29,438 nucleotides of DNA from an uncultured Thermus sp. (lineage in GTDB: Bacteria > Deinococcota > Deinococci > Deinococcales > Thermaceae), in NCBI GenBank assembly GCA_947085095.1, contig CAMTVD010000003.1:1-29438 (forward strand), given 5' to 3'. The stretch's first letter is position 1, and the number at the start of each line of letters is the position of its first letter. The notes under the pieces were generated by a model, which saw only the letters and a program-made list of their open reading frames with translations, was not told the origin of the DNA and did not search any database. A program made the translations under genes and the position numbers. Shown here one piece after another: positions 9,693 through 17,727 of this stretch.

Positions 9693-10033
9693 AGGCCACT
9701 CTTCCATGGCCGCCCTCGGTGAACCACTACTGGGCGGCCAGGGGGAATGGCCGCTACCTCTCCCCCCACGCCCAGCGGTGGCACAAGGAGGCGTGGGCCA
9801 CCCTGCGCGCCGCGTGGCGCGGGAAGCCCATGCGGGGGGAGGTGGCGGTGCTCGTCGTCCTTCATCCCCCGGACCGGAGGAGGCGGGACCTGGACAACAT
9901 CCTGAAGGCGGTCCTGGACGCGCTCGTGCACGCGGGGGTGCTCCAGGACGACTCCCAGGTGGCGGAGCTTCACGCCGTGCGGCGAGAGGCGCGCCGTCCT
10001 GGACGGGTGGAGATACGGGTGGAGAGATTCTGA
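9653..10033 (+). CDS. rusA: RusA-family Holliday junction resolvase
   Basis: LPWPPSVNHYW, PPDRRRRDLDNILKAVLDAL and DDSQV motifs. True start may be GTG 9683. Confidence 0.93.
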   Translation: MANVLPRARSVALEATLPWPPSVNHYWAARGNGRYLSPHAQRWHKEAWATLRAAWRGKPMRGEVAVLVVLHPPDRRRRDLDNILKAVLDALVHAGVLQDDSQVAELHAVRREARRPGRVEIRVERF

Positions 10034-10200
10034 CATCCTCCCCGTTCTGAAGAACGGGGGCTCCTACACGGAGCTTGCGAGGTTGGAGTCTGCATGAGCC
10101 GAAGCCCATACCTTTACCCCATCCAGCCCCTCCTCTACGGGAGGAGCCTGTCCGGGTTGCCCCAGACGGGCCGTGTCAGGCGGCCCATAGCGCAGCAGTC
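10030..10200 (-). ncRNA. omegaRNA (reRNA)-like scaffold at the element right end; 5' boundary approximate
   Basis: Consecutive minus-strand hairpins GGGCCG/CGGCCC (10186-10168), GTCTGGG-GCAA-CCCGGAC (10167-10150), CTCCTC/GAGGAG (10146-10130) and GTATGGGC-TTCG-GCTCATGC (10111-10092), with GNRA/UUCG tetraloops and G-U pairs, abutting the right end. Confidence 0.62.
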
Positions 10201-10568: not shown

Positions 10569-11051
10569 GTGTCTAGGAAGTGCACCATCTGCACCCACCC
10601 CCAGCGGGCGGAGATAGACCGAGAGCTCGCAGAAGGGAGGTCTATCCGAGACATAGCGAGACGCTATAGCGTTTCACGCCCTTCCCTTCACCGCCACCGC
10701 ACGCACGTCCAGGACGCTGTTCAACGGGCGGTTGAAGCCAAGGCGGTCCAGGTCGGCGTGTCCGTTTTGGACCGCATCAGGGAGCTGAACCGCGAGGCCC
10801 GCGCCCTTCTGGAAGAAGCTCGCTCAAAGGGACGCTACGCGGCGGCGGTCCAGGCGATTGGGGCGGCTACCAGGCTTTTGGAACTAGAGGCCAAGCTCCT
10901 CGGGGAGCTAGACGAGCGTCCCAGCGTCCAGGTGGCGCTGGTGGCGAGCCCGGAGTGGGCCCGGCTGAGGGCGGTGGTCCTCGAGGCCCTGGCCCCCTAC
11001 CCCGAGGCCAGGGCCGCCCTGGTGGAACGTCTGGAGGCGGAGGGTGCGTGA
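10569..11051 (+). CDS. Terminase small subunit
   Basis: CTICTHPQRAEIDRELAEGRSIRDIARRYSVSRPSLHRH (Zn/HTH) then coiled coil. Strong GGAGGAGG RBS. Directly upstream of the large subunit. Confidence 0.8.
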   Translation: MSRKCTICTHPQRAEIDRELAEGRSIRDIARRYSVSRPSLHRHRTHVQDAVQRAVEAKAVQVGVSVLDRIRELNREARALLEEARSKGRYAAAVQAIGAATRLLELEAKLLGELDERPSVQVALVASPEWARLRAVVLEALAPYPEARAALVERLEAEGA

Positions 11052-12297
11052 GCTCGCCCAGGACCTGGCCCTCGCCCTAGACCCCACGGTGGTCCTCAAG
11101 CGGGCGGGTGTCACGCCCGCCCCCTGGCAGCGGCGGGCCCTCCTCTCCCCGTCCCCCCGCCTTCTCCTCCTCGCCTCGCGTCAGGCGGGGAAGAGCACCA
11201 CCGCCGCCGCTCTCGCCCTCCACACCGCCCTGGTGCGCCAGGAGGCCACGGTGCTCCTCATCGCCCCCTCCCAGCGGCAGAGCCAGGAGCTCGCCAACCG
11301 GGTGCGGCGCTTCGCCCAGGTCCTCGGCCTGGAGCTCCAGGCGGAGAGCGCCCTTCGGCTGGAACTCCGAGGGGGGAGCCGGGTCATCGCCCTCCCCGCC
11401 AAAGAGGGAACCATCCGGGGCTACAGCGCCCACCTCGTGGTCCTGGACGAGGCCGCGTGGATCCCCGACGACCTCTACGCCGCCGTGCGCCCCATGCTGG
11501 CCGCCACCCGTGGCCGTCTGGTGGCCATCTCCACCCCCTTCGGCACCCGGGGCTGGTTCTGGCGGGAGTGGGTGGAAGGGGAGGGGTGGGAGCGGGTGAT
11601 GGTGACGGCCTACGACGTGCCCCACCTGGACCCGGCGTTCCTGGAGGAGGAGCGCCGCGCCCTGGGAGAGTGGCGATTTCGGCAGGAGTACCTGTGTGAG
11701 TTCCTCTCCTCGGGCGGGGCCATCCCCGAGGAGGACGTGGAGCGGGCCACACGCCTCCCCGGCCCCGAGGAGCCCCGGGAGGGGCGGCGCTACGTGGCGG
11801 GGCTGGACCTCGCCCGCGTCCACGACTGGACCGCCCTCGCCATCGTGGACGCCACGGAGCCCGAGGCCATGCGCCTGGTGCGCCTGGAGCGCTGGCGGGC
11901 AGAGTGGGAAGAGACGGTGGAGCGGGTCCTGAGCCTCGTCCGCCCCTACGCCCCGAGGCTACTCGTGGACGCCACGGGCGTGGGGGATCCGGTCTACGAG
12001 CGCCTGCGGCGGGCCTATCCCAATGTCTACCCGTACCGGTTTTCCCACGCCACAAAGCCCCCCCTGGTCACCGAACTTCGCCTGGCCCTCGCCGAGGGGA
12101 GGCTTCTCCTCTACCCGGACCCCGCCCTCCTCGGGGAGCTCCGGGCCCTCGAGGCCCGCCAGACGGCCTACGGGGTGAGCTACGAGGCCCCGTCCGGGGC
12201 GCACGACGACACGGTGATGGCCCTGGCCCTCGCGGTGTGGGCGGCCCGGCATGCGGCCCCTACTGGTGGGCCCTACCGGGTGAAGGGGAGGTGGTAG
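11044..12297 (+). CDS. Terminase large subunit
   Basis: ASRQAGKS Walker A, IRGYSAHLVVLDEAAW Walker B, ISTPFG, FRQEYLCEF, nuclease GLDLARVHDWT, DATGVG and HDDTVMALALA. Confidence 0.95.
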   Translation: MRELAQDLALALDPTVVLKRAGVTPAPWQRRALLSPSPRLLLLASRQAGKSTTAAALALHTALVRQEATVLLIAPSQRQSQELANRVRRFAQVLGLELQAESALRLELRGGSRVIALPAKEGTIRGYSAHLVVLDEAAWIPDDLYAAVRPMLAATRGRLVAISTPFGTRGWFWREWVEGEGWERVMVTAYDVPHLDPAFLEEERRALGEWRFRQEYLCEFLSSGGAIPEEDVERATRLPGPEEPREGRRYVAGLDLARVHDWTALAIVDATEPEAMRLVRLERWRAEWEETVERVLSLVRPYAPRLLVDATGVGDPVYERLRRAYPNVYPYRFSHATKPPLVTELRLALAEGRLLLYPDPALLGELRALEARQTAYGVSYEAPSGAHDDTVMALALAVWAARHAAPTGGPYRVKGRW

Positions 12298-12529: not shown

Positions 12530-12811
12530 ATGCGCCGCGTGGGGCCTCCCGGCCGGGGGCGCCGGGAGGAGGTGGAGCGGCTGGTGGGTCAAGCGGGGAG
12601 CTACGCCCTGCGGGTGGGGGGGCGCTGGTACCCCTGGGACACAGTGCGTGAGGCCCTGCGGCGGGCCCTGGAGCTGGACCGCCCGCCCCACGAGCGGAGC
12701 CGGGAGGCGCGGGACCTGGCGGCCTTCCTCTGGTCCCCTCGCCCCGACCGGGTGGGCTATGTCCTAGCCCGCCCCAGGCTCCTCCAGATATGGAGGGAGA
12801 TTCATGGCTAA
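12530..12811 (+). CDS. Hypothetical protein (start uncertain)
   Basis: Fills the gap before the portal gene with host-like codon usage and overlaps the portal start. The frame is open further upstream. Confidence 0.5.
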   Translation: MRRVGPPGRGRREEVERLVGQAGSYALRVGGRWYPWDTVREALRRALELDRPPHERSREARDLAAFLWSPRPDRVGYVLARPRLLQIWREIHG

Positions 12812-14231
12812 GGAGAAGGTGAACACCTACCAGGAGCCTCGGGGCTGGCTCCGGGCCGAGTGGACCCCGGCGGAGGTCCGCACCGTCTGGGCCATCGCCC
12901 AGCAGGGGGACATGCGGCCCGTGGCCGAGCTTGCCCGGGCCATCTTGGGGGACGAGCGGGCGCAGGGGGTCCTCTCCGTGCGGGTCCGGGCCCTCCTCGG
13001 CCTCCCCTTCACTCTGGAGCCCGCCCCCGGCGGGGAGCGCTGGGCGAAGCTTTTAGAGGAGCGGTGGTGGAGCCTCTTCCCCGAGGAGGCCCTGCACGAC
13101 CTCATGGTCTGGGCCCTCCTCACGGGGGTGGGGCTCGCCGCCCTCTCCTGGGTGGAAGAGGACGGCCTCCTCTGGCCCCGGCTGGACGTCTGGAACCCGG
13201 GGGCCCTGGTGATGCGGGACGGGGCGTGGCGCGTGCGGGACGCCACAGGGCAGGAGCATCTGCTGGAGCGGGGGATGTGGCTCCTCTACACCCCCTACGG
13301 GCCGAAGCGCCCGTGGGAAAAGGGGCTCTGGCGGACCCTCGCCCTCCCCTGGCTGGTGAAAGCTGACGCCATCCGGTACTGGGCCCGTGACAACGAGGTG
13401 GGGGCCCTCAGGGTGGCCTACACCGATGGGCCCACGGGGGAGACGGGAAAGGAGCTCGCCCAGCTCCTGGCGGACCTCGGAGGTGACACGGGCCTCGTCC
13501 TCCCCGAGGGGTGGCGGCTGGACGTGCTCTCGCCCTCGGCGGAGGTGTGGCGCTCCAAGGCGGAGGCCATCGCCTGGGCGGACCGGGCCATGACCATCGC
13601 CATACTCGGGCAGAACCTCACCACGGACGTCCAGGGCGGGAGCTACGCCGCCGCGCGGGTGCACGAGGCCGTGCGAGCGGACCTCCTGGAGGCGGACGTG
13701 GAGACCCTAGCCACCGGGCTCAGGAACGGCGTCCTGGCCCTCTGGGCCGAGTGGAACGCGGGAGACCCTGCCCTCGCCCCCTGGCCTCGCTGGGACCCCA
13801 GGCCCCCCGAGGACCTGGCCGCCCGGGCGGAGACCCTGCAGCGGTTGGCCCAGGCCGTGGCGACCTTCGCCCAGGCGGGGGCGAACGTGGACCTGGACGC
13901 CCTCCTGGAGGAGTACGGCCTCCCCGTGCGGAAAGGGCAGGGGCTCGTGCGCCTCGCCTCGGGGGACCCGCCCCAGGAGGCCCCGGGCTTCGTCCAGGGG
14001 CAGCTCTACGCCGACGCCCTCGCGGATCGCCTCCTATCCCGCCTCCCCGACCCCCTGGCGGGCCTCGAGGCCGAACTCGCCCAGGCCCAGAGCTACGAGG
14101 AGGTGCGGGGCCTCCTCATGCGCCGCTTCCGGGAGGCCTCCCCTGAGGAGGTGGCCGCCCTCACGGAGCGGGCCCTGGCCCTCGCGGGACTGGCGGGGCG
14201 GTACTCGGTGATCCGCGATGTGGAGCGTTAG
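12804..14231 (+). CDS. Portal protein (Mu gp29/DUF935-like)
   Basis: IAILGQNLTTDVQGGSYAAARVHEAVRADLLEAD motif. Position after terminase. Confidence 0.92.
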   Translation: MAKEKVNTYQEPRGWLRAEWTPAEVRTVWAIAQQGDMRPVAELARAILGDERAQGVLSVRVRALLGLPFTLEPAPGGERWAKLLEERWWSLFPEEALHDLMVWALLTGVGLAALSWVEEDGLLWPRLDVWNPGALVMRDGAWRVRDATGQEHLLERGMWLLYTPYGPKRPWEKGLWRTLALPWLVKADAIRYWARDNEVGALRVAYTDGPTGETGKELAQLLADLGGDTGLVLPEGWRLDVLSPSAEVWRSKAEAIAWADRAMTIAILGQNLTTDVQGGSYAAARVHEAVRADLLEADVETLATGLRNGVLALWAEWNAGDPALAPWPRWDPRPPEDLAARAETLQRLAQAVATFAQAGANVDLDALLEEYGLPVRKGQGLVRLASGDPPQEAPGFVQGQLYADALADRLLSRLPDPLAGLEAELAQAQSYEEVRGLLMRRFREASPEEVAALTERALALAGLAGRYSVIRDVER

Positions 14232-15357
14232 CGCCGATCCCCTCCGCTTCCAGGAGGCGGTGGAGTGGTTCCGGGGCAAGGTGCCCCTCCTCAAGGGGGA
14301 GTGGGGCCAGCTCACCCAGGAGGCCCGGCGGCGGGCCTTCACCGCCGCCGGGGTGGCCCTCTTGGACCGCCTCGCCCTTCTCCACCAGAGCGTTCTCCGG
14401 GCCCTGGAGGAGGGGACGCCCCTGGAGGAGTGGCGGCAGGAGGCCCTGCGCGTCCTCGGGGAAAGGTGGAGCTACGGCCACCTGGAGACCATCTTCCGCA
14501 ACAACGTCCAGGCCGCCTACTCCGCCGGGAGGTGGGACCAGCTCCAGGACCCCGCCGTGCGTCGCTCCCACCCCTACCTCATGTACGATGCCGTGCTGGA
14601 CAGCCGCACCACGGAGATCTGCCGGGCCCGGGACGGGGTGGTGCGCCCGGCGGACGACCCGTGGTGGAGGTCCAACTGGCCCCCCCTCCACCACAACTGC
14701 CGGAGCGGGGTGCGGGCCCTCACCCGCGCGGAGGCCGAGCGGCGGGGCGTGACCCAGACCCTGCCCAGCCTCCCCCCGCAGGAGGGCTTCGGCCTCTCCC
14801 CGGCGGAGGAGGAGTGGGTGGAGGGCTACGCCAAGGGCCAAAGGGACGCCGCCCGCCTCCCCTGGGCGCCCGCCTTCGCCGGGGAGCCACCCACCTGGCG
14901 CTCCTACGACCTACCTGAACGCCTGGACCCTACGCCCGCCCCCGGAGACCTCCTGCCCACGCTGGCGGAGGTGGGGGAGGCGCGCTTCCTCGCCCTCCTG
15001 GAGGAGCGCTTGGGAGGCCTCCCCGCCCTCCTCGTGGACCCCACGGGCCTCCCCGTGCTGGTGGACCGGGGGCTCGTGGGCCACCTCAAGGGGGATGGGC
15101 GGGAGCGCTTCCTCGCCTGGCTTCCAGACCTGGTGCGGACCCCGCAGGAGGTCTGGCTCCTCCCCCTTCAGCACGAGCGGCGAGTGGTCTTCCGCCAGCG
15201 GTACCTGAAGGTCTACCGGGAGGGGCGGGACCGGCACCTGGTCCTCTCGGCGGAGGTGCACCGGGGGGCCCTGGTAGCCCTGACCTTCGTGGAGTCTAGG
15301 GACTACGCCTATCTCCAAAACCAGCGGGTGGGGTTTCTCCGGTGGGTGGCCAAATGA
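14218..15357 (+). CDS. MuF (Mu gpF/SPP1 gp7) minor head protein with C-terminal PBECR2-like nuclease domain
   Basis: MuF motifs LETIFRNNVQAAYSAGRW, YDAVLDSRTTEICRARDG and PPLHHNCRS. C-terminal GRERFLAWLPDLVRTPQEVW…RYLKVY…TFV…YLQNQRVG resembles PBECR2. Confidence 0.88.
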   Translation: MWSVSADPLRFQEAVEWFRGKVPLLKGEWGQLTQEARRRAFTAAGVALLDRLALLHQSVLRALEEGTPLEEWRQEALRVLGERWSYGHLETIFRNNVQAAYSAGRWDQLQDPAVRRSHPYLMYDAVLDSRTTEICRARDGVVRPADDPWWRSNWPPLHHNCRSGVRALTRAEAERRGVTQTLPSLPPQEGFGLSPAEEEWVEGYAKGQRDAARLPWAPAFAGEPPTWRSYDLPERLDPTPAPGDLLPTLAEVGEARFLALLEERLGGLPALLVDPTGLPVLVDRGLVGHLKGDGRERFLAWLPDLVRTPQEVWLLPLQHERRVVFRQRYLKVYREGRDRHLVLSAEVHRGALVALTFVESRDYAYLQNQRVGFLRWVAK

Positions 15358-15435
15358 AACGGGGAACGCCCCCCTGGAGGGGCGCCCGTCCTGCACCGGG
15401 CTATCGGGAACCCAGGCCCAGCCCGGTGGGTTTGC
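15352..15435 (-). ncRNA. Candidate ~83-nt structured small RNA convergent on the MuF-nuclease gene
   Basis: Own promoter (next feature), 9-bp stem CACCGGGCT/AGCCCGGTG (15428-15420/15402-15394), then a terminal hairpin 15389-15359 followed by UUUCAUUU. Confidence 0.6.
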
Positions 15436-15439
15436 CCTG

Positions 15440-15468
15440 ATTCTAGCACCCCTTGTAGCGGAGTGCAA
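15440..15468 (-). promoter_or_regulatory. Leftward sigma70-type promoter
   Basis: TTGCAC (15468-15463), 17 bp, TG-c-TAGAAT (15445-15440). Confidence 0.75.
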
Positions 15469-15481
15469 GGTGTGCTATCCT
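15453..15481 (+). promoter_or_regulatory. Rightward sigma70-type promoter for capsid/tail genes
   Basis: TTGTAG (15453-15458), 17 bp, TG-c-TATCCT (15476-15481). Confidence 0.65.
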
Positions 15482-15504
15482 AGAGCTAAGCTCGGATAAC
15501 TCTA

Positions 15505-15529
15505 CCCCCGGGAAGCCCCGGGGGGTTTT
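15505..15529 (+). terminator. Terminator-like hairpin in the 5' leader of the protease gene
   Basis: CCCCCGGG-AAGC-CCCGGGGG followed by GTTTTC, ending 8 nt before ATG 15538. Confidence 0.55.
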
Positions 15530-15537
15530 CGTGGACC

Positions 15538-16854
15538 ATGACACGGCATGCCCTGACCATCCCCGTCCCCGGGGGCGAGCCCCCCCGCGAGTTTCGCATC
15601 TTCCCCTTCGGTCGCGTGGAGACGACCAAGGGGGTCTTTCTCTTTGACCAGGAGGCGGCCCGCCGGGTGATGCAGGCCTGGCGGGACTACGGCAACCGGC
15701 TCTCCATTGACTACGAGCACCAGGCCCTGGAGCCCGTGTCCAACGGCCCCGTCCCCGCCGCGGGGTGGTTTGACCTCGAGGTCCGGGAGGACGGCCTCTG
15801 GGCGGTGAACGTGGAGTGGACCCCGAGGGCTATGGAGCTTTTGCGCAACCGGGAGTACCGCTACTTCAGCCCCGCCTTCTACGTGGACGAGGAGGGGCGC
15901 ATCGTGGAGCTCATCAACCTCGCCCTCACCAACCTCCCGGCCACCAAGCGCATGGAGCCTCTGGTGGCGAAGGCGGTGGGGTTTGAGTCGGGCCCGGTCT
16001 ACGAGGGCTCCTCCTGGGACGCGGACGCCGCCGTGGCCCGGGTCCGGCGCTGGGCCAGCCGGGACGGGAGCGGGGACAAGGAGACCATAGACTGGGCGAG
16101 GTACCGCAAGGCTTTCGCCTGGTACGACGCCACGGACCCAGAGAGTTTCGGCTCCTACAAGCTCCCCCACCACGACGTGGTGGACGGGAAGCTTGTGGTG
16201 CACAAAAGGGGGGTCTACGCCGCCGCCGCCGTTCTGCAAGGGGCGCGTGGTGGCGTGGACATCCCAGAGGCGGAGCTGGAGGCGGTGAGGAGGCACATCG
16301 CGGCCCACTACCACCAGTGGGGCGAGAAGGCCCCCTGGGAGCGGGAGGAGACCAGGAGGACGAGGATGGAAAGAGTTTTGCGGCTTTTGGGACTTAGGGA
16401 CGACGCTGGCGAGGCCGAGGCCGAAGCGGTTCTCCGCAGGCTCATGGCGTTCCCGGAACGGGTCTTCGCCCTGACGGGGACGCGCCGGGAGGACGAGGCC
16501 GAGGCGGTGCTCCTGGCCTGGAAGCAGGCCCACGAGGAGCTGCCCCGGGTCCAGGAGCGGCTGGCCGCGCTGGAGGAGGAGCGGAGGAAGGAGCGGCTGG
16601 CCCGCCTCATTGAGGAGGGGAAGAGGGAGGGCAAGCTCACCCCGGCCATGCTCTCCTGGGCGGAGAGCCAGACTCCCGAGGCGCTGGAGGCGTTTTTGCG
16701 GGTGGCCCCCAGGGTGGTCCGGGCGAACGGTCTGGAAGAGCCGGAACCTGGTGGGCTGGACTGGAACCAGATGACGCCCGCTCAGCGGGCGGAGCTCTAC
16801 AGGAAGGACCCCGAGGCCTACCGCGCCCTGCGGCGGAGGGCCCTCGGGTACTGA
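15538..16854 (+). CDS. Mu-like prohead protease/scaffold (gpI-like)
   Basis: IDYEHQ, PAAGW, GLWAVNVEWT, EYRYFSPAF and LALTNLPA motifs, then a coiled-coil scaffold with EGKLTPA. Confidence 0.92.
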   Translation: MTRHALTIPVPGGEPPREFRIFPFGRVETTKGVFLFDQEAARRVMQAWRDYGNRLSIDYEHQALEPVSNGPVPAAGWFDLEVREDGLWAVNVEWTPRAMELLRNREYRYFSPAFYVDEEGRIVELINLALTNLPATKRMEPLVAKAVGFESGPVYEGSSWDADAAVARVRRWASRDGSGDKETIDWARYRKAFAWYDATDPESFGSYKLPHHDVVDGKLVVHKRGVYAAAAVLQGARGGVDIPEAELEAVRRHIAAHYHQWGEKAPWEREETRRTRMERVLRLLGLRDDAGEAEAEAVLRRLMAFPERVFALTGTRREDEAEAVLLAWKQAHEELPRVQERLAALEEERRKERLARLIEEGKREGKLTPAMLSWAESQTPEALEAFLRVAPRVVRANGLEEPEPGGLDWNQMTPAQRAELYRKDPEAYRALRRRALGY

Positions 16855-16866
16855 GGAGGTAGTGAG

Positions 16867-17727
16867 ATGCCTGTGACCACTAGGAGCGACCTATTCATCC
16901 CCGAGGTGCTGGCCGACGCGGTGGCGGGCGCGTGGCCCGACCGCATCGCCCTGCTGGGCACGGAGGCGGTGGTGGAGTCTCGCACCCTGCCCGGCGACGC
17001 CAAAGACGGAGATAGGGTCAGGATTCCGTACTTCGGAGTCCTGGGCGAGTACGAGGTCGTGGGGGAGGGGCAATCCCTGACCCCCACGAAGCTCACCATG
17101 ACCACAGAGGAGGCCGTGGTGCAGCGGGCGGGGAAGTTGTTTGAGATAACCGCCTGGGCCCGCATGGCGGCCATGTACGCCGACCCCTACGCCGAAGCCA
17201 CCCGCCAGCTCCTCGAGGGGGCTCGGCGGACCTTTGACCGGGCTCTGGTGGAAGCGGCTGCCTCCACCACGGGCAGAGGAGTCCAGACGGTGAACGCCTC
17301 CTCCGGCACCATCTCCTACGACGCCATCGTGGACGCCCTGAGCGCCTTCGGCGAGAGCGAGGACTCCGTGGCCGCCGTCGTCATGCACCCCAAAGTCTTG
17401 AACGACCTCCGCAAGGCGAAGAGCAACGACGGCATGCCCCTGTTCCTCAACCCCCAGGACGGTGGCCGCCCACGGGTGCTGGGCCTGCCCATCATCGTCT
17501 CCCGCCGGGCCCCGGTCATCAGCGGCACCCCCAACACCTACGTCACCCTCTTCGTGCGCCGCGGGGCCCTCGCCCTCTGGTACAACGGCACGCCGAGCAT
17601 TGAGACGGACAAGGACATCGCCAGCGACACCCTCCTCGCCGCCGTGAACGTCTACTTCGTGGCCCACCGCTACTCCCGACTCCCCGGCGACACCGATCCT
17701 GTGGTGGTGCGGCTCGTGACCAGGTAG
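16867..17727 (+). CDS. Major capsid protein
   Basis: TTRSDLFIPEV, GDRVRIPYF, DAIVDALSAFGE, VMHPKV and IETDKDI pattern. Follows the protease; strong RBS. Confidence 0.88.
   Translation: MPVTTRSDLFIPEVLADAVAGAWPDRIALLGTEAVVESRTLPGDAKDGDRVRIPYFGVLGEYEVVGEGQSLTPTKLTMTTEEAVVQRAGKLFEITAWARMAAMYADPYAEATRQLLEGARRTFDRALVEAAASTTGRGVQTVNASSGTISYDAIVDALSAFGESEDSVAAVVMHPKVLNDLRKAKSNDGMPLFLNPQDGGRPRVLGLPIIVSRRAPVISGTPNTYVTLFVRRGALALWYNGTPSIETDKDIASDTLLAAVNVYFVAHRYSRLPGDTDPVVVRLVTR

Follow-up and report, generated by a model that had tools for sequence, protein, structure and literature searches.

A small RNA gene predicted convergent to MuF-PBECR2 in a Mu-like phage of Thermus: a candidate RNA immunity factor for a virion RNase-like protein

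This study shows that the gap downstream of a MuF-PBECR2 gene in a Mu-like phage of Thermus is occupied by an independent and previously uncatalogued small-RNA gene, predicted on the opposite strand and equipped with a putative promoter of its own. The gene lies in a window of 29,438 nucleotides from an uncultured Thermus sp. (contig CAMTVD010000003.1), by which we mean the whole stretch of DNA that was analysed. Comparison of its homologues gives good support to a new family of structured RNAs, with a predicted loop-loop tertiary contact, promoter and terminator and with about 70 variants. We tentatively propose that this RNA may act as an immunity factor for the RNase-like domain encoded beside it.

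The protein at this locus was characterized by profile search. A preliminary description of the DNA had proposed that the MuF protein is fused to a PBECR2-like nuclease domain, and the Pfam scan bears this out. The scan finds only two domains in the gene product, Phage_Mu_F at residues 56-163 (E 4.6e-18) and PBECR2 (PF18810), the latter with E 2e-19 and 70.4 bits against a cut-off of 27.1 and covering profile positions 2-119 of 120. A catalytic-type His in the motif LVGHL and a Thr in ALTF are present and are conserved in relatives. Both residues are retained in 36 of 39 aligned PBECR2 rows, counting an alignment in which the Thr of L013 is shifted by one column and L212 is truncated by a contig end, while neither is retained in L204 and L020. 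The AF2 model (pLDDT 89.8) displays helices followed by four long strands. A Foldseek search of the PDB with this model returned nothing at E <= 0.001, the top match being the CdiA-CT chain 7m5f_C at E 0.12. The best VIA-align rows were colicin D (Z 5.0, rmsd 2.9, 77 aligned), BrnT, five CdiA-CT toxins, colicin E5 and RelE, all at Z <= 5, which is weak and rated as not decisive by the tool. The gene sits in a packaging and head module made up of terminase, Mu-type portal, MuF, Mu I protease, capsid and Mu gp36. In the passages of Iyer et al. 2017 (PMC5512222) that describe MuF-PBECR, this is how Mu gp30-like proteins are normally built, so that the domain is not an exotic toxin add-on. The same passages give His plus Ser/Thr as the PBECR active-site pair, and expect the MuF-PBECR protein to be packaged and injected without expecting a need for immunity.

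Between MuF-PBECR2 and the protease gene is a gap of 180 bp (15358-15537). No conserved open reading frame was found in it: even the most persistent frame stays open in just 47 of 61 distinct homologous copies, and lengths among relatives differ by non-multiples of three. The earlier claim that the gap holds no credible immunity gene thus stands. The RNA spelled out in the preliminary description is present in the sequence and ends on the MuF stop codon, its two ends (15436 and 15352) being deduced from the promoter and the U-run. It is the only match of the covariance model in the window and in the genome, and its convergent overlap with the MuF-PBECR2 coding region is at most 6 nt (Table 1). 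The promoter had been called near-consensus, which does not hold for its -35 part. The hexamer TTGCAC agrees with TTGACA at 3 of 6 positions and is not kept in relatives such as L006, and a promoter scanner at its threshold called no promoter. The conserved element is the extended -10 box, found as TGnTAnnnT in 53 of 62 distinct copies and as plain TAnnnT in 6 more, with neither form in 3; across these copies it ends 1-7 nt ahead of model position 1. At the other end of the gene, the U-run position has at least 5 T per 8-nt window in 39 of the 62 copies and fewer in 23, and a minus-strand terminator-like site is called at 15374-15361. The strand is further indicated by 44 G.U cells against 14 A.C cells in the alignment. 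A separate promoter and leader unit on the plus strand precedes the protease gene; its hairpin displays compensatory changes in L002/L006, and the unit also occurs in the RNA-less loci L015 and L204.

Table 1. Positions of the genes, signals and predicted RNA elements in the window
Feature	Position	Strand	Basis or remark
MuF-PBECR2 gene, 379 aa	14218..15357	+	Pfam scan; stop codon TGA at 15355-15357
PBECR2 RNase-like domain	residues 257-376, ~nt 14986-15345	+	Pfam
Predicted small RNA gene, ~85 nt	15352..15436	-	covariance model 97.9 bits; homologues; covariation; G.U bias
Putative extended -10 box TGcTAGAAT	15440..15448	-	conserved in copies
-35-like hexamer TTGCAC	15463..15468	-	17 nt upstream of -10; read from sequence
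Predicted 5' hairpin	15390..15430	-	P1 15420-15430 with 15390-15402; P2 15417-15419 with 15406-15408
Unpaired parts of 5' hairpin	CA bulge 15392-15393; GAU bulge 15403-15405; loop 2 CCUGGGUU 15409-15416	-	
Predicted 3' hairpin P3, terminator stem	15360..15389	-	conserved loop UCCAGG 15373-15378, pairs with loop 2
U-run UUUCAUUU	15352..15359	-	overlaps MuF stop codon and last codon; read from sequence
Separate neighbouring unit	15473..15530	+	extended -10 TGcTATCCT 15473-15481; -35-like TTGTAG 15453-15458
Leader hairpin and T-run of neighbouring unit	15505-15530	+	directly before protease ATG at 15538; terminator-like call
Mu I-like protease gene	15538-16854		next gene after MuF-PBECR2

The homologues argue strongly that the minus-strand RNA is structured, as had been proposed. 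In the 62 distinct rows double-sided changes occur in 9 of the 11 pairs of P1, with 90.6% of cells paired, and double changes are seen in all 7 modelled pairs of P3. In another alignment, double changes affect 16 of the 27 pairs, and the share of paired cells is 94%, compared with 84.6% in shuffles, none of which in 500 reached as high a value, and with 32-55% in slid controls. The 63-row alignment leads to the same conclusion. Folding of the single 88-nt sequence was no better than that of shuffles (z -0.63, with 45 of 200 shuffles folding as well); because the DNA is 70% GC, single-sequence thermodynamics is uninformative here.

Covariation also points to a helix outside the search model, in which the loop CCUGGG of the 5' hairpin pairs with the terminator loop UCCAGG. 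This loop-loop helix of 5-6 bp is 95.6% paired. At pair 22-66, 48 rows have CG and 13 have UA; at pair 23-65, UA occurs in 46 rows, CG in 13 and GC in 1; and the 5-bp core of the helix exists in five Watson-Crick variants (CCUGG/CCAGG, CCCGG/CCGGG, CUCGG/CCGAG, CUUGG/CCAAG and CCGGG/CCCGG). In L209 the helix is preserved in a shifted register. The pseudoknot of the preliminary description is therefore right as to the loop that pairs and wrong as to its partner, since it had paired this loop with the flanks AACC and CAGG. The two flanks pair with each other, with U-A in place of C-G in 8 rows, and changes in the loop are not matched by changes in the linker, so that the loop-flank pseudoknot is rejected. 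The loop-loop pairing may join two molecules instead of one, two arrangements that covariation cannot distinguish.

Conservation of the RNA is not confined to its helices. At loci where the adjacent PBECR2 domains share 30-63% amino-acid identity, the 5' domain of the RNA keeps 85-96% nucleotide identity, and the unpaired bases GAU, CA and ACGC are conserved among copies. The conservation of these single-stranded nucleotides goes well beyond what cis-antisense action would require, which favours protein binding, the preference that had been expressed before. The RNA does not appear to belong to a catalogued family. In Rfam 15 the region 15300-15560 gives no match at the gathering score, the best sub-threshold family being sraL with 19.9 bits against 39, and no description of the RNA was found in the literature searched outside subscription journals and supplements. 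Mimicry of a host RNA was also considered and rejected; blastn-short against the whole genome gave matches at chance level only, the best being 22 nt at C14:47156, inside a coding sequence.

Seventy-two distinct copies of the RNA were collected from Deinococcota genomes, viral contigs and metagenomes, and they are spread across at least three families of the order. Chance model matches in coding-like sequence were excluded (L132, L133, L138, L144, L146, L160, L162, L179, L181 and L183), and in the pattern scans 3 of 23 loci found with a 17-mer and 36 of 56 found with a loose pattern were attributed to chance. The preliminary description had suggested testing whether promoter and fold co-occur only with the nuclease extension. 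When loci are chosen by their protein, this is largely what is found. A phylum-wide protein search of 364 genomes, from which 29 MuF loci were fetched, found the convergent RNA at the stop codon in 10 of 12 loci with a PBECR2-type C-terminus and in 0 of 17 MuF genes with other C-termini, and among viral contigs, searched from the protein side, 28 loci came up, of which 27 were testable and 23 carry the RNA; as related loci are not independent, these counts overstate the number of events. When loci are chosen by their RNA, a full PBECR2 gene is missing beside 43 of the 72 distinct copies. We regard these results as supporting a genetic link between the RNA and the PBECR2 domain, rather than between the RNA and MuF in general. 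For example, L015 has its protease and promoter region in common with L014 and carries neither the RNA nor a PBECR2-type C-terminus.

The exceptions among PBECR2-type loci are informative. L020 and L204 are the two RNA-less loci whose gap is undisturbed, and these are also the only two of the 39 aligned rows in which both His and Thr have been lost, supporting the view that presence of the RNA tracks the catalytic integrity of PBECR2. In the RNA-less loci L010/L211 and L203 an IS-like insertion lies precisely at the stop codon, and the RNA-less L213 is a 28% partial match. In L010 the catalytic residues are intact and no RNA was found, either within 5 kb downstream with filters off or in the whole genome (G168); the prophage is disrupted there, with an IS-like element adjoining the stop codon.

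The copies that lack a full PBECR2 gene deserve separate attention. Many of them keep just the last 7-40 codons of it, and in L043 and L125 the RNA was left behind where the MuF C-terminus had been swapped. Tandem, divergent copies occur in the host loci L123, L151 and L170. The structure covaries among the orphans themselves, and promoter, fold and terminator are all preserved in orphans that neighbour lysS, integrases or CRISPR arrays. Remnant copies without a toxin are a known pattern of orphan immunity genes at polymorphic toxin loci, and orphans without the RNase fit this pattern. They also allow an independent function, and since over half of the distinct copies stand beside no RNase gene, the RNA may have a role that does not depend on the RNase.

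On this evidence, we put forward, as the best though still tentative explanation, that the RNA would be an immunity factor for a virion-delivered BECR-type RNase, antitoxin-like in action and outside the type III families. Under this proposal, the RNA would fold to a compact kissing-loop shape and bind the PBECR2 domain, probably at or near its conserved active site, as a pseudo-substrate inhibitor. Produced constitutively from the prophage, it could prevent fresh MuF-PBECR2 from harming the cell that makes it and shield lysogens from RNase injected with the DNA of related superinfecting phages, and the orphan copies in bacteria could then represent acquired immunity genes. Several points restrict this interpretation. 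PBECR2 is the common C-domain of Mu gp30-like proteins, for which Iyer et al. expect no need of immunity, the structural resemblance to BECR toxins is weak, and L010, in its disrupted prophage, combines intact catalytic residues with absence of the RNA. The RNA core is near-invariant while the protein diverges to 30% identity, which is unlike the rapid co-diversification of toxins and their immunity factors, and is compatible with an inhibitor only if the RNA contacts invariant active-site residues.

The alternative that survives best, although we consider it unlikely, is that the RNA regulates in cis as an antisense transcript, in the manner of type I systems or of lambda OOP, and would pair with the 3' UTR of portal-MuF read-through transcripts or with an intercistronic late transcript and cause cleavage or interference with the protease promoter, thereby tuning late-gene or MuF expression. 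The layout of the locus suits such a regulator well, because the RNA is convergent with MuF and ends on its stop codon, and the only plus-strand terminator-like site lies downstream of the RNA gene, at 15505-15530, so that upstream transcripts probably cross the entire RNA gene. Moreover, the promoters of the RNA and of the plus-strand protease operon overlap, and in L007-L009 about 10 nt separate the -10 box of the RNA from the ribosome-binding site of the protease gene. However, pairing with the opposite strand is automatic for any such transcript and leaves unexplained the high identity of the 5' domain and its conserved unpaired bases, the covariation between the RNA's own loops and the link to the PBECR2 catalytic residues. 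The orphans beside lysS, integrases and CRISPR arrays, which retain the signals and the fold, and the very small coding overlap speak against it as well.

Rather less probable, in our judgement, is that the RNA takes part in a conflict between phage and CRISPR, either as a decoy or mimic for repeat-binding proteins or as a host-captured inhibitor that shields crRNAs from the phage RNase. This idea comes from the array-linked orphans, which lie at the trailer end and on the repeat strand of genuine arrays in L127, L129, L131, L123 and L151, at the array beside lysS, and in L170. The last of these has a different repeat type, and its RNA begins 16 nt past the last of 17 repeats. In addition, one repeat-like unit stands 5 nt ahead of the -10 box of the RNA in L118, and L015 has a solitary repeat unit in the equivalent gap. 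The repeat hairpin of L170 (CACCGGCCC/GGGCCGGUG, then AGGA) resembles P1 in part, the likeness being CACCGG...CCGGUG and then AGGA. Passages of Iyer et al. (PMC5512222) leave the targets of these domains open among phage or host mRNA and CRISPR RNA, proposing CRISPR RNAs as possible targets of some PBECR domains, and anti-CRISPR RNAs that mimic repeats are described in the literature (PMC10651486). On the other hand, ATTGAAAC is found within 120 nt upstream of only 5 of the 72 distinct copies; six array-linked loci were seen overall, and five of them probably represent a single orthologous locus. The likeness to the repeat amounts to 6+6+4 nt at the stem ends of GC-rich hairpins, and is absent for the L127 repeat and for type B RNAs. 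Recombination of solitary phage repeats with host arrays could have placed the RNA there without any function, and the gap in our window has no repeat unit, the assembly showing only another repeat type. The orphans at array ends suggest a testable link between the phage RNase and RNA-guided immunity. A specific form of this link, which we hold to be doubtful, is that bacteria have captured the RNA at CRISPR trailer ends, where it would be made together with crRNAs and would disarm a phage RNase that destroys RNA-guided defence on entry.

It is also improbable that the RNA is a trans-acting or unrelated small RNA, a moron in this slot of the Mu-like phage whose association with PBECR2 is due to descent. 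Its own promoter and terminator, its many RNase-free contexts and its spread over at least three families would be expected of a moron. Descent alone does not explain why the RNA is missing from all 17 sister MuF genes, as the comparison of L015 with L014 illustrates, nor why it was twice lost along with the active site, and blastn-short revealed no convincing target or look-alike in the host genome.

Still less probable is that the RNA is a partner of the MuF C-domain, either as a substrate or cofactor of PBECR2 or as a head-assembly or packaging RNA that oligomerises like the phi29 pRNA. The gene does sit in the head-morphogenesis module between portal-MuF and protease, complementary covarying loops are a hallmark of the phi29 pRNA, covariation does not separate intramolecular from intermolecular pairing, and an RNA-binding role is predicted for the Mu MuF C-domain in passages of Iyer et al. 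(PMC5512222). Against this, the phage has an ordinary large terminase, the RNA is lost with the catalytic residues in L020 and L204 though the rest of the domain stays, the orphans keep promoter and fold in chromosomal loci distant from head genes, and no Rfam family, pRNA included, reaches E 10 at the RNA region apart from unrelated weak rows.

Finally, it is very improbable that there is no RNA gene and that the element is a DNA-level site or a bidirectional terminator of the MuF operon. The unremarkable single-sequence fold would agree with this, and no transcript was seen in the sequencing runs examined, which were 4 of the 23 listed: run X1 gave a single 23-kb contig spanning the whole region without strand or ends, X6 gave two contigs, one stopping at 15289 and the other starting at 15389, and the raw-read runs X20 and X21 gave 0 reads, so that the four runs are uninformative on transcription. 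Yet the covariation, including that of the loop-loop helix, the strand-specific G.U bias, the promoter conserved in its spacing in 53 of the 62 copies and the absence of a T-run after either hairpin on the plus strand all contradict it.

If the RNA does inhibit PBECR2, it would represent a new way to tame a delivered toxin, and, should the immunity interpretation be true, the first case of an immunity factor made of RNA that acts against a BECR RNase injected from a virion. To our knowledge, all known immunity factors of polymorphic toxins and effectors are proteins. In the solved BECR toxin complexes of our structural match list (ImmD, CdiI, BrnA and RelB) the partner is likewise always a protein, and the known protein-binding RNA antitoxins act on another nuclease family from another gene layout. 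We know of no assay of any PBECR domain, although these domains are common in phage virion proteins, so a natural tight ligand would offer a biochemical handle on them. If the CRISPR-linked interpretation were true, it would bring counter-counter-defence at the level of RNA into the arms race around CRISPR. Whatever the function of the RNA family, its roughly 70 variants and thermophilic origin suit structural work.

One close functional parallel is found in the type III toxin-antitoxin systems (ToxIN, CptIN and AbiQ/antiQ), which are also phage-related and in which a structured, pseudoknot-like RNA binds and neutralises an endoribonuclease, as we propose here. In those systems the toxins belong to the ToxN/AbiQ family, and the antitoxin consists of tandem short repeats located upstream, co-transcribed with the toxin and cut by it. 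Our locus differs in its toxin family and its gene layout. Its protein carries a PBECR2 domain of BECR type instead of a ToxN, AbiQ or CptN toxin and is a virion component, not an abortive-infection toxin, and its RNA, about 85 nt long, occurs once, lies downstream and convergent, and has its own predicted promoter and terminator. No tandem repeats were found in 13800-16000, where the window's one model match lies on the opposite strand. The RNA is thus not a member of the type III systems, and the analogy drawn in the preliminary description fails on the toxin family and the gene arrangement.

Lambda OOP/cII and the Bacillus prophage type I pairs txpA/RatA and bsrG/SR4 resemble the present locus in having a short RNA, made from its own promoter toward the 3' end of a phage or prophage gene and ending inside it. 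Those RNAs pair extensively with the mRNA and are not otherwise constrained in sequence, and type I toxins are small membrane peptides. The partner here is a 379-aa virion protein with minimal coding overlap, any overlap with a 3' UTR would depend on where its mRNA ends, and the RNA has an internal covarying loop-loop helix and conserved unpaired bases. The prohead RNA of phi29 is likewise a structured phage RNA with two complementary covarying loops and an association with the portal region; it forms rings by pairing between molecules, is indispensable for packaging in phi29-like podoviruses, and has no RNase partner. Our RNA is shorter, has orphan chromosomal copies and is linked to catalytic residues.

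The RNA anti-CRISPRs and solitary repeats (PMC10651486) are small phage ncRNAs in conflict with RNA-guided defence; a solitary repeat unit lies in the equivalent gap of L015, and some orphans adjoin arrays, but the RNA studied here is no repeat copy and resembles one repeat type at the stem ends only. With the MuF-PBECR proteins of Iyer et al. (PMC5512222) our protein shares the domain architecture and the His and Thr residues, while the passages of that paper describe them without an RNA partner or immunity factor. Lastly, the MuF polymorphic toxins, as portrayed in passages of Jamet et al. 2017 (PMC5576092), have much in common with this locus: a MuF N-terminus, a location among the packaging genes of a temperate phage, a nuclease-type C-domain of at least 100 aa and displaced C-terminal remnants left behind. 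In these passages, a small open reading frame of fewer than 150 aa immediately downstream encodes the immunity protein, whereas in the present locus that slot, which has no conserved open reading frame, is taken by a predicted RNA gene on the opposite strand.

A short RNA gene very probably lies on the minus strand directly behind the MuF-PBECR2 gene, and this prediction is well supported by comparison of related loci. The RNA sequence spelled out in the preliminary description is present in the gap at 15358-15537; as a single sequence its minus-strand fold is unremarkable (z -0.63 against shuffles). The near-consensus promoter claimed for it does not hold up, since the -35 element TTGCAC fits at only three of six positions, and for this reason a promoter scanner calls none in the gap at its threshold. 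The RNA has no match to an Rfam family, there are no tandem repeats at the locus, and no reading frame in the gap is conserved among the copies of the RNA, which agrees with the earlier view that the gap holds no credible immunity ORF. The element recurs 3' of MuF-PBECR2 genes down to 42% identity. A search for an exact 17-mer of its core hit 23 viral contigs and yielded 20 true copies; a looser pattern hit 56 loci, with 20 genuine ones among them, three on new contigs. Among 68 genomes of the family, the covariance model R1 recovers the RNA in 22 (three weak matches are probably false), and it does so in five more genomes from two other families of the order. A pattern scan of metagenomes gave 46 loci (39 true), and the pooled 90 matches represent 72 distinct copies.

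Features of the Mu-type head module and of the gap behind MuF
Feature	Position	Strand	Remark
Large terminase	11044-12297		Mu-type head module
Portal_Mu	12804-14231		Mu-type head module
MuF (MuF-PBECR2 gene)	14218-15357	+	Mu-type head module
Predicted RNA gene	15352-15436	-	about 85 nt
Separate unit in rest of gap	15453-15530	+	extended -10 promoter and leader terminator hairpin
Mu I-like protease	15538-16854		Mu-type head module
Capsid	16867-17727		Mu-type head module
Mu gp36			Mu-type head module

The 5' hairpin of the RNA consists of an 11-bp helix P1 with a CA bulge, a GAU bulge, a 3-bp helix P2 and an 8-nt loop; an ACGC linker then leads to the terminator hairpin P3, which has a variable stem (about 7-11 bp) with double changes in every modelled pair and a conserved 6-nt loop. 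A type B subclass with a shorter P1 and a CGCG linker keeps the same overall plan. In the first alignment of 26 rows, 94.0% of cells are paired against 84.6% in column shuffles, a value reached by 0 of 500 shuffles, and two-sided changes occur in 16 of 27 pairs (slid controls, 32-55%). With 62 distinct rows, fitted to nested helices rather than to a pseudoknot, the figures are 91.4% against 77.7%, and two-sided changes in 20 of 27 pairs bear out the convergent structured RNA proposed from the single sequence. The inner loop does form a pseudoknot-like pairing as proposed, but its partner is not the flanks. The flanks CC/GG belong to P1 and covary with each other (C-G to U-A in eight rows). The 8-nt loop is instead complementary to the 6-nt loop of P3: CCUGG/CCAGG is found in 43 rows, across four loop combinations, CUCGG/CCGAG in 11, CCCGG/CCGGG and CUUGG/CCAAG in two each and CCGGG/CCCGG in one, while one locus (L209) shifts the register to UCCGGG/CUCGGA, and one orphan, that is, a copy without a full PBECR2 gene beside it (L123a), is mismatched. 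As the two loops are complementary and change together, a loop-loop contact supersedes the loop-flank pairing. Where PBECR2 is 30-63% identical to that of the window, the 5' domain of the RNA is 85-96% identical and P3 only 44-72%.

The minus orientation gives 44 G.U against 14 A.C cells, the latter mostly at the misaligned base of P3. TGnTAnnnT stands 1-7 nt ahead of model position 1 in 53 of the 62 distinct copies, and of the other nine, six show a plain -10 box and three show none. At least five T occur in the 8 nt after P3 in 39 of the 62 copies, the run being weaker in the remainder; it overlaps the MuF stop codon, where the RNA had been proposed to end. A cis-antisense role, in which the RNA would act on the convergent MuF transcript, appears unlikely. 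The separate plus-strand unit has the extended -10 sequence TGcTATCCT and then a leader, about 45 nt long, whose end directly before the protease ATG is a GC hairpin with a T-run. Compensatory changes preserve this hairpin in relatives, and the unit also occurs where the RNA is missing; it has the look of a late-operon unit dependent on antitermination.

In a Pfam scan, residues 56-163 of the MuF product match Phage_Mu_F and residues 257-376 match PBECR2 (E 2e-19 for PBECR2), so that the nuclease-like C-terminal extension noticed earlier is confirmed by profile. PBECR domains are described as phage BECR-fold RNases with an active site formed by a His within the N-terminal helix together with a Ser/Thr in the last strand; MuF-PBECR is given as the simplest architecture, and Mu gp30 itself carries an inactive copy (Iyer et al. 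2017, PMC5512222). Across 13 aligned C-domains there is almost no variation at His45 and Thr112. An AF2 model (pLDDT 89.8) has no strong PDB neighbour by Foldseek, the best being a CdiA-CT toxin at E 0.12. A structure search independent of Foldseek lists at its top colicin D tRNase (Z 5.0), BrnT, several CdiA-CT toxins, colicin E5 and RelE, neighbours that offer weak but coherent agreement with the BECR assignment.

Among 29 genome loci found with the MuF query, the RNA is present in 10 of 12 with a PBECR2 C-terminus and in 0 of 17 with other C-termini. Two related loci, L014 and L015, have the protease and plus-strand promoter region in common, and PBECR2 and the RNA occur together in L014 only. 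Of 28 viral loci, 23 have the RNA, four lack it and one is cut by the contig end; the two sets are not independent, since some viral loci duplicate genome loci. In the RNA-less loci L010/L211 and L203, an IS200/IS605-like element has inserted precisely at the stop codon of MuF-PBECR2 and takes the place of the RNA. These insertions share the same left end in two different phage lineages, and a preferred target at this hairpin-rich site is suggested. Another RNA-less locus (L213) is a 28% partial match, and in L204 and L020, which likewise have no RNA, the gap is undisturbed and both His and Thr are lost; no other of the 39 rows has lost both residues.

In the search from the RNA side, 43 of the 72 distinct copies lack a full PBECR2. 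The full domain faces 29 copies, a partial domain faces 11, and tblastn finds no PBECR2 beside the other 32; of 12 of these 32 that were translated, seven show C-terminal PBECR2 remnants of 7-37 codons. Some orphans lie in Mu-like phages with a replaced MuF C-terminus (L043, L125). In L043, L125 and L156 the MuF C-terminal region is unrelated, and the last 7-12 PBECR2 codons and the RNA gene are still downstream, which is C-terminal displacement of the kind seen in polymorphic toxin loci. Other orphans stand beside tyrosine integrases (L182, L154), a plasmid RepA gene (L117) and housekeeping genes. Covariation of the structure is also seen within the set of orphans, which are therefore maintained.

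Further orphans lie where genuine CRISPR arrays end on the trailer side, and they are encoded on the repeat strand. Five loci have them at a lysS-adjacent array (L127, L129, L131, L123, L151), with two divergent copies in tandem in L123 and L151, and an unrelated array (L170) has three copies, the first beginning 16 nt past the last repeat; L118 has a single repeat-like unit 5 nt ahead of the -10 box of the RNA. The repeats are 36-37 nt long and end in ATTGAAAC, and the terminal repeats next to the RNA are degenerate. A solitary repeat unit of the type in the L127 array lies in the MuF-protease gap of L015 (2930-2973), a related phage that lacks the RNA and in which MuF ends in another kind of C-terminal region. 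In this shared genomic position the unit may be an RNA anti-CRISPR. A CRISPR-related role of the RNA itself is rather improbable, and that it is a small RNA unrelated to the nuclease is less probable still.

A prophage or phage makes up the window, which is the entire contig C3 of a 2.08-Mb genome of roughly 70% GC; besides the head module it carries a contractile-tail module, and its nearest named relative at this locus is Meiothermus luteus. The RNA occurs once in the genome. A second MuF gene of this genome (G000:C4:1309-1908) is 41% identical over residues 2-201 and lacks the PBECR2 part. A role as a partner or pRNA-like RNA is very improbable. An Rfam HgcC match (10017-10188, minus strand; 55.9 bits at a cut-off of 50, E 2.4e-10) falls where the GC content drops between the early region and the terminase; the candidate ORFs of this stretch match no Pfam family. 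In RNA-seq run X1 of a cultured organism, in which window 15000-15900 was examined, a single contig of 23 kb at word depth 186 spans the whole prophage region, which means that either DNA was carried over or the prophage was induced.

The reading that fits best, tentatively, is that the RNA would act by binding to the RNase, either as inhibitor or as immunity factor, because it is tied to an intact active site, because its unpaired bases are conserved, and because of the tertiary contact and the orphan pattern. The proposed mode of action would be like that of RNA antitoxins. The analogy with type III systems drawn earlier does not extend to membership: tandem repeats are absent and this genome has a single RNA copy. 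Since the RNA-RNase pair lacks the features that define type III and type I systems, we file it under neither.
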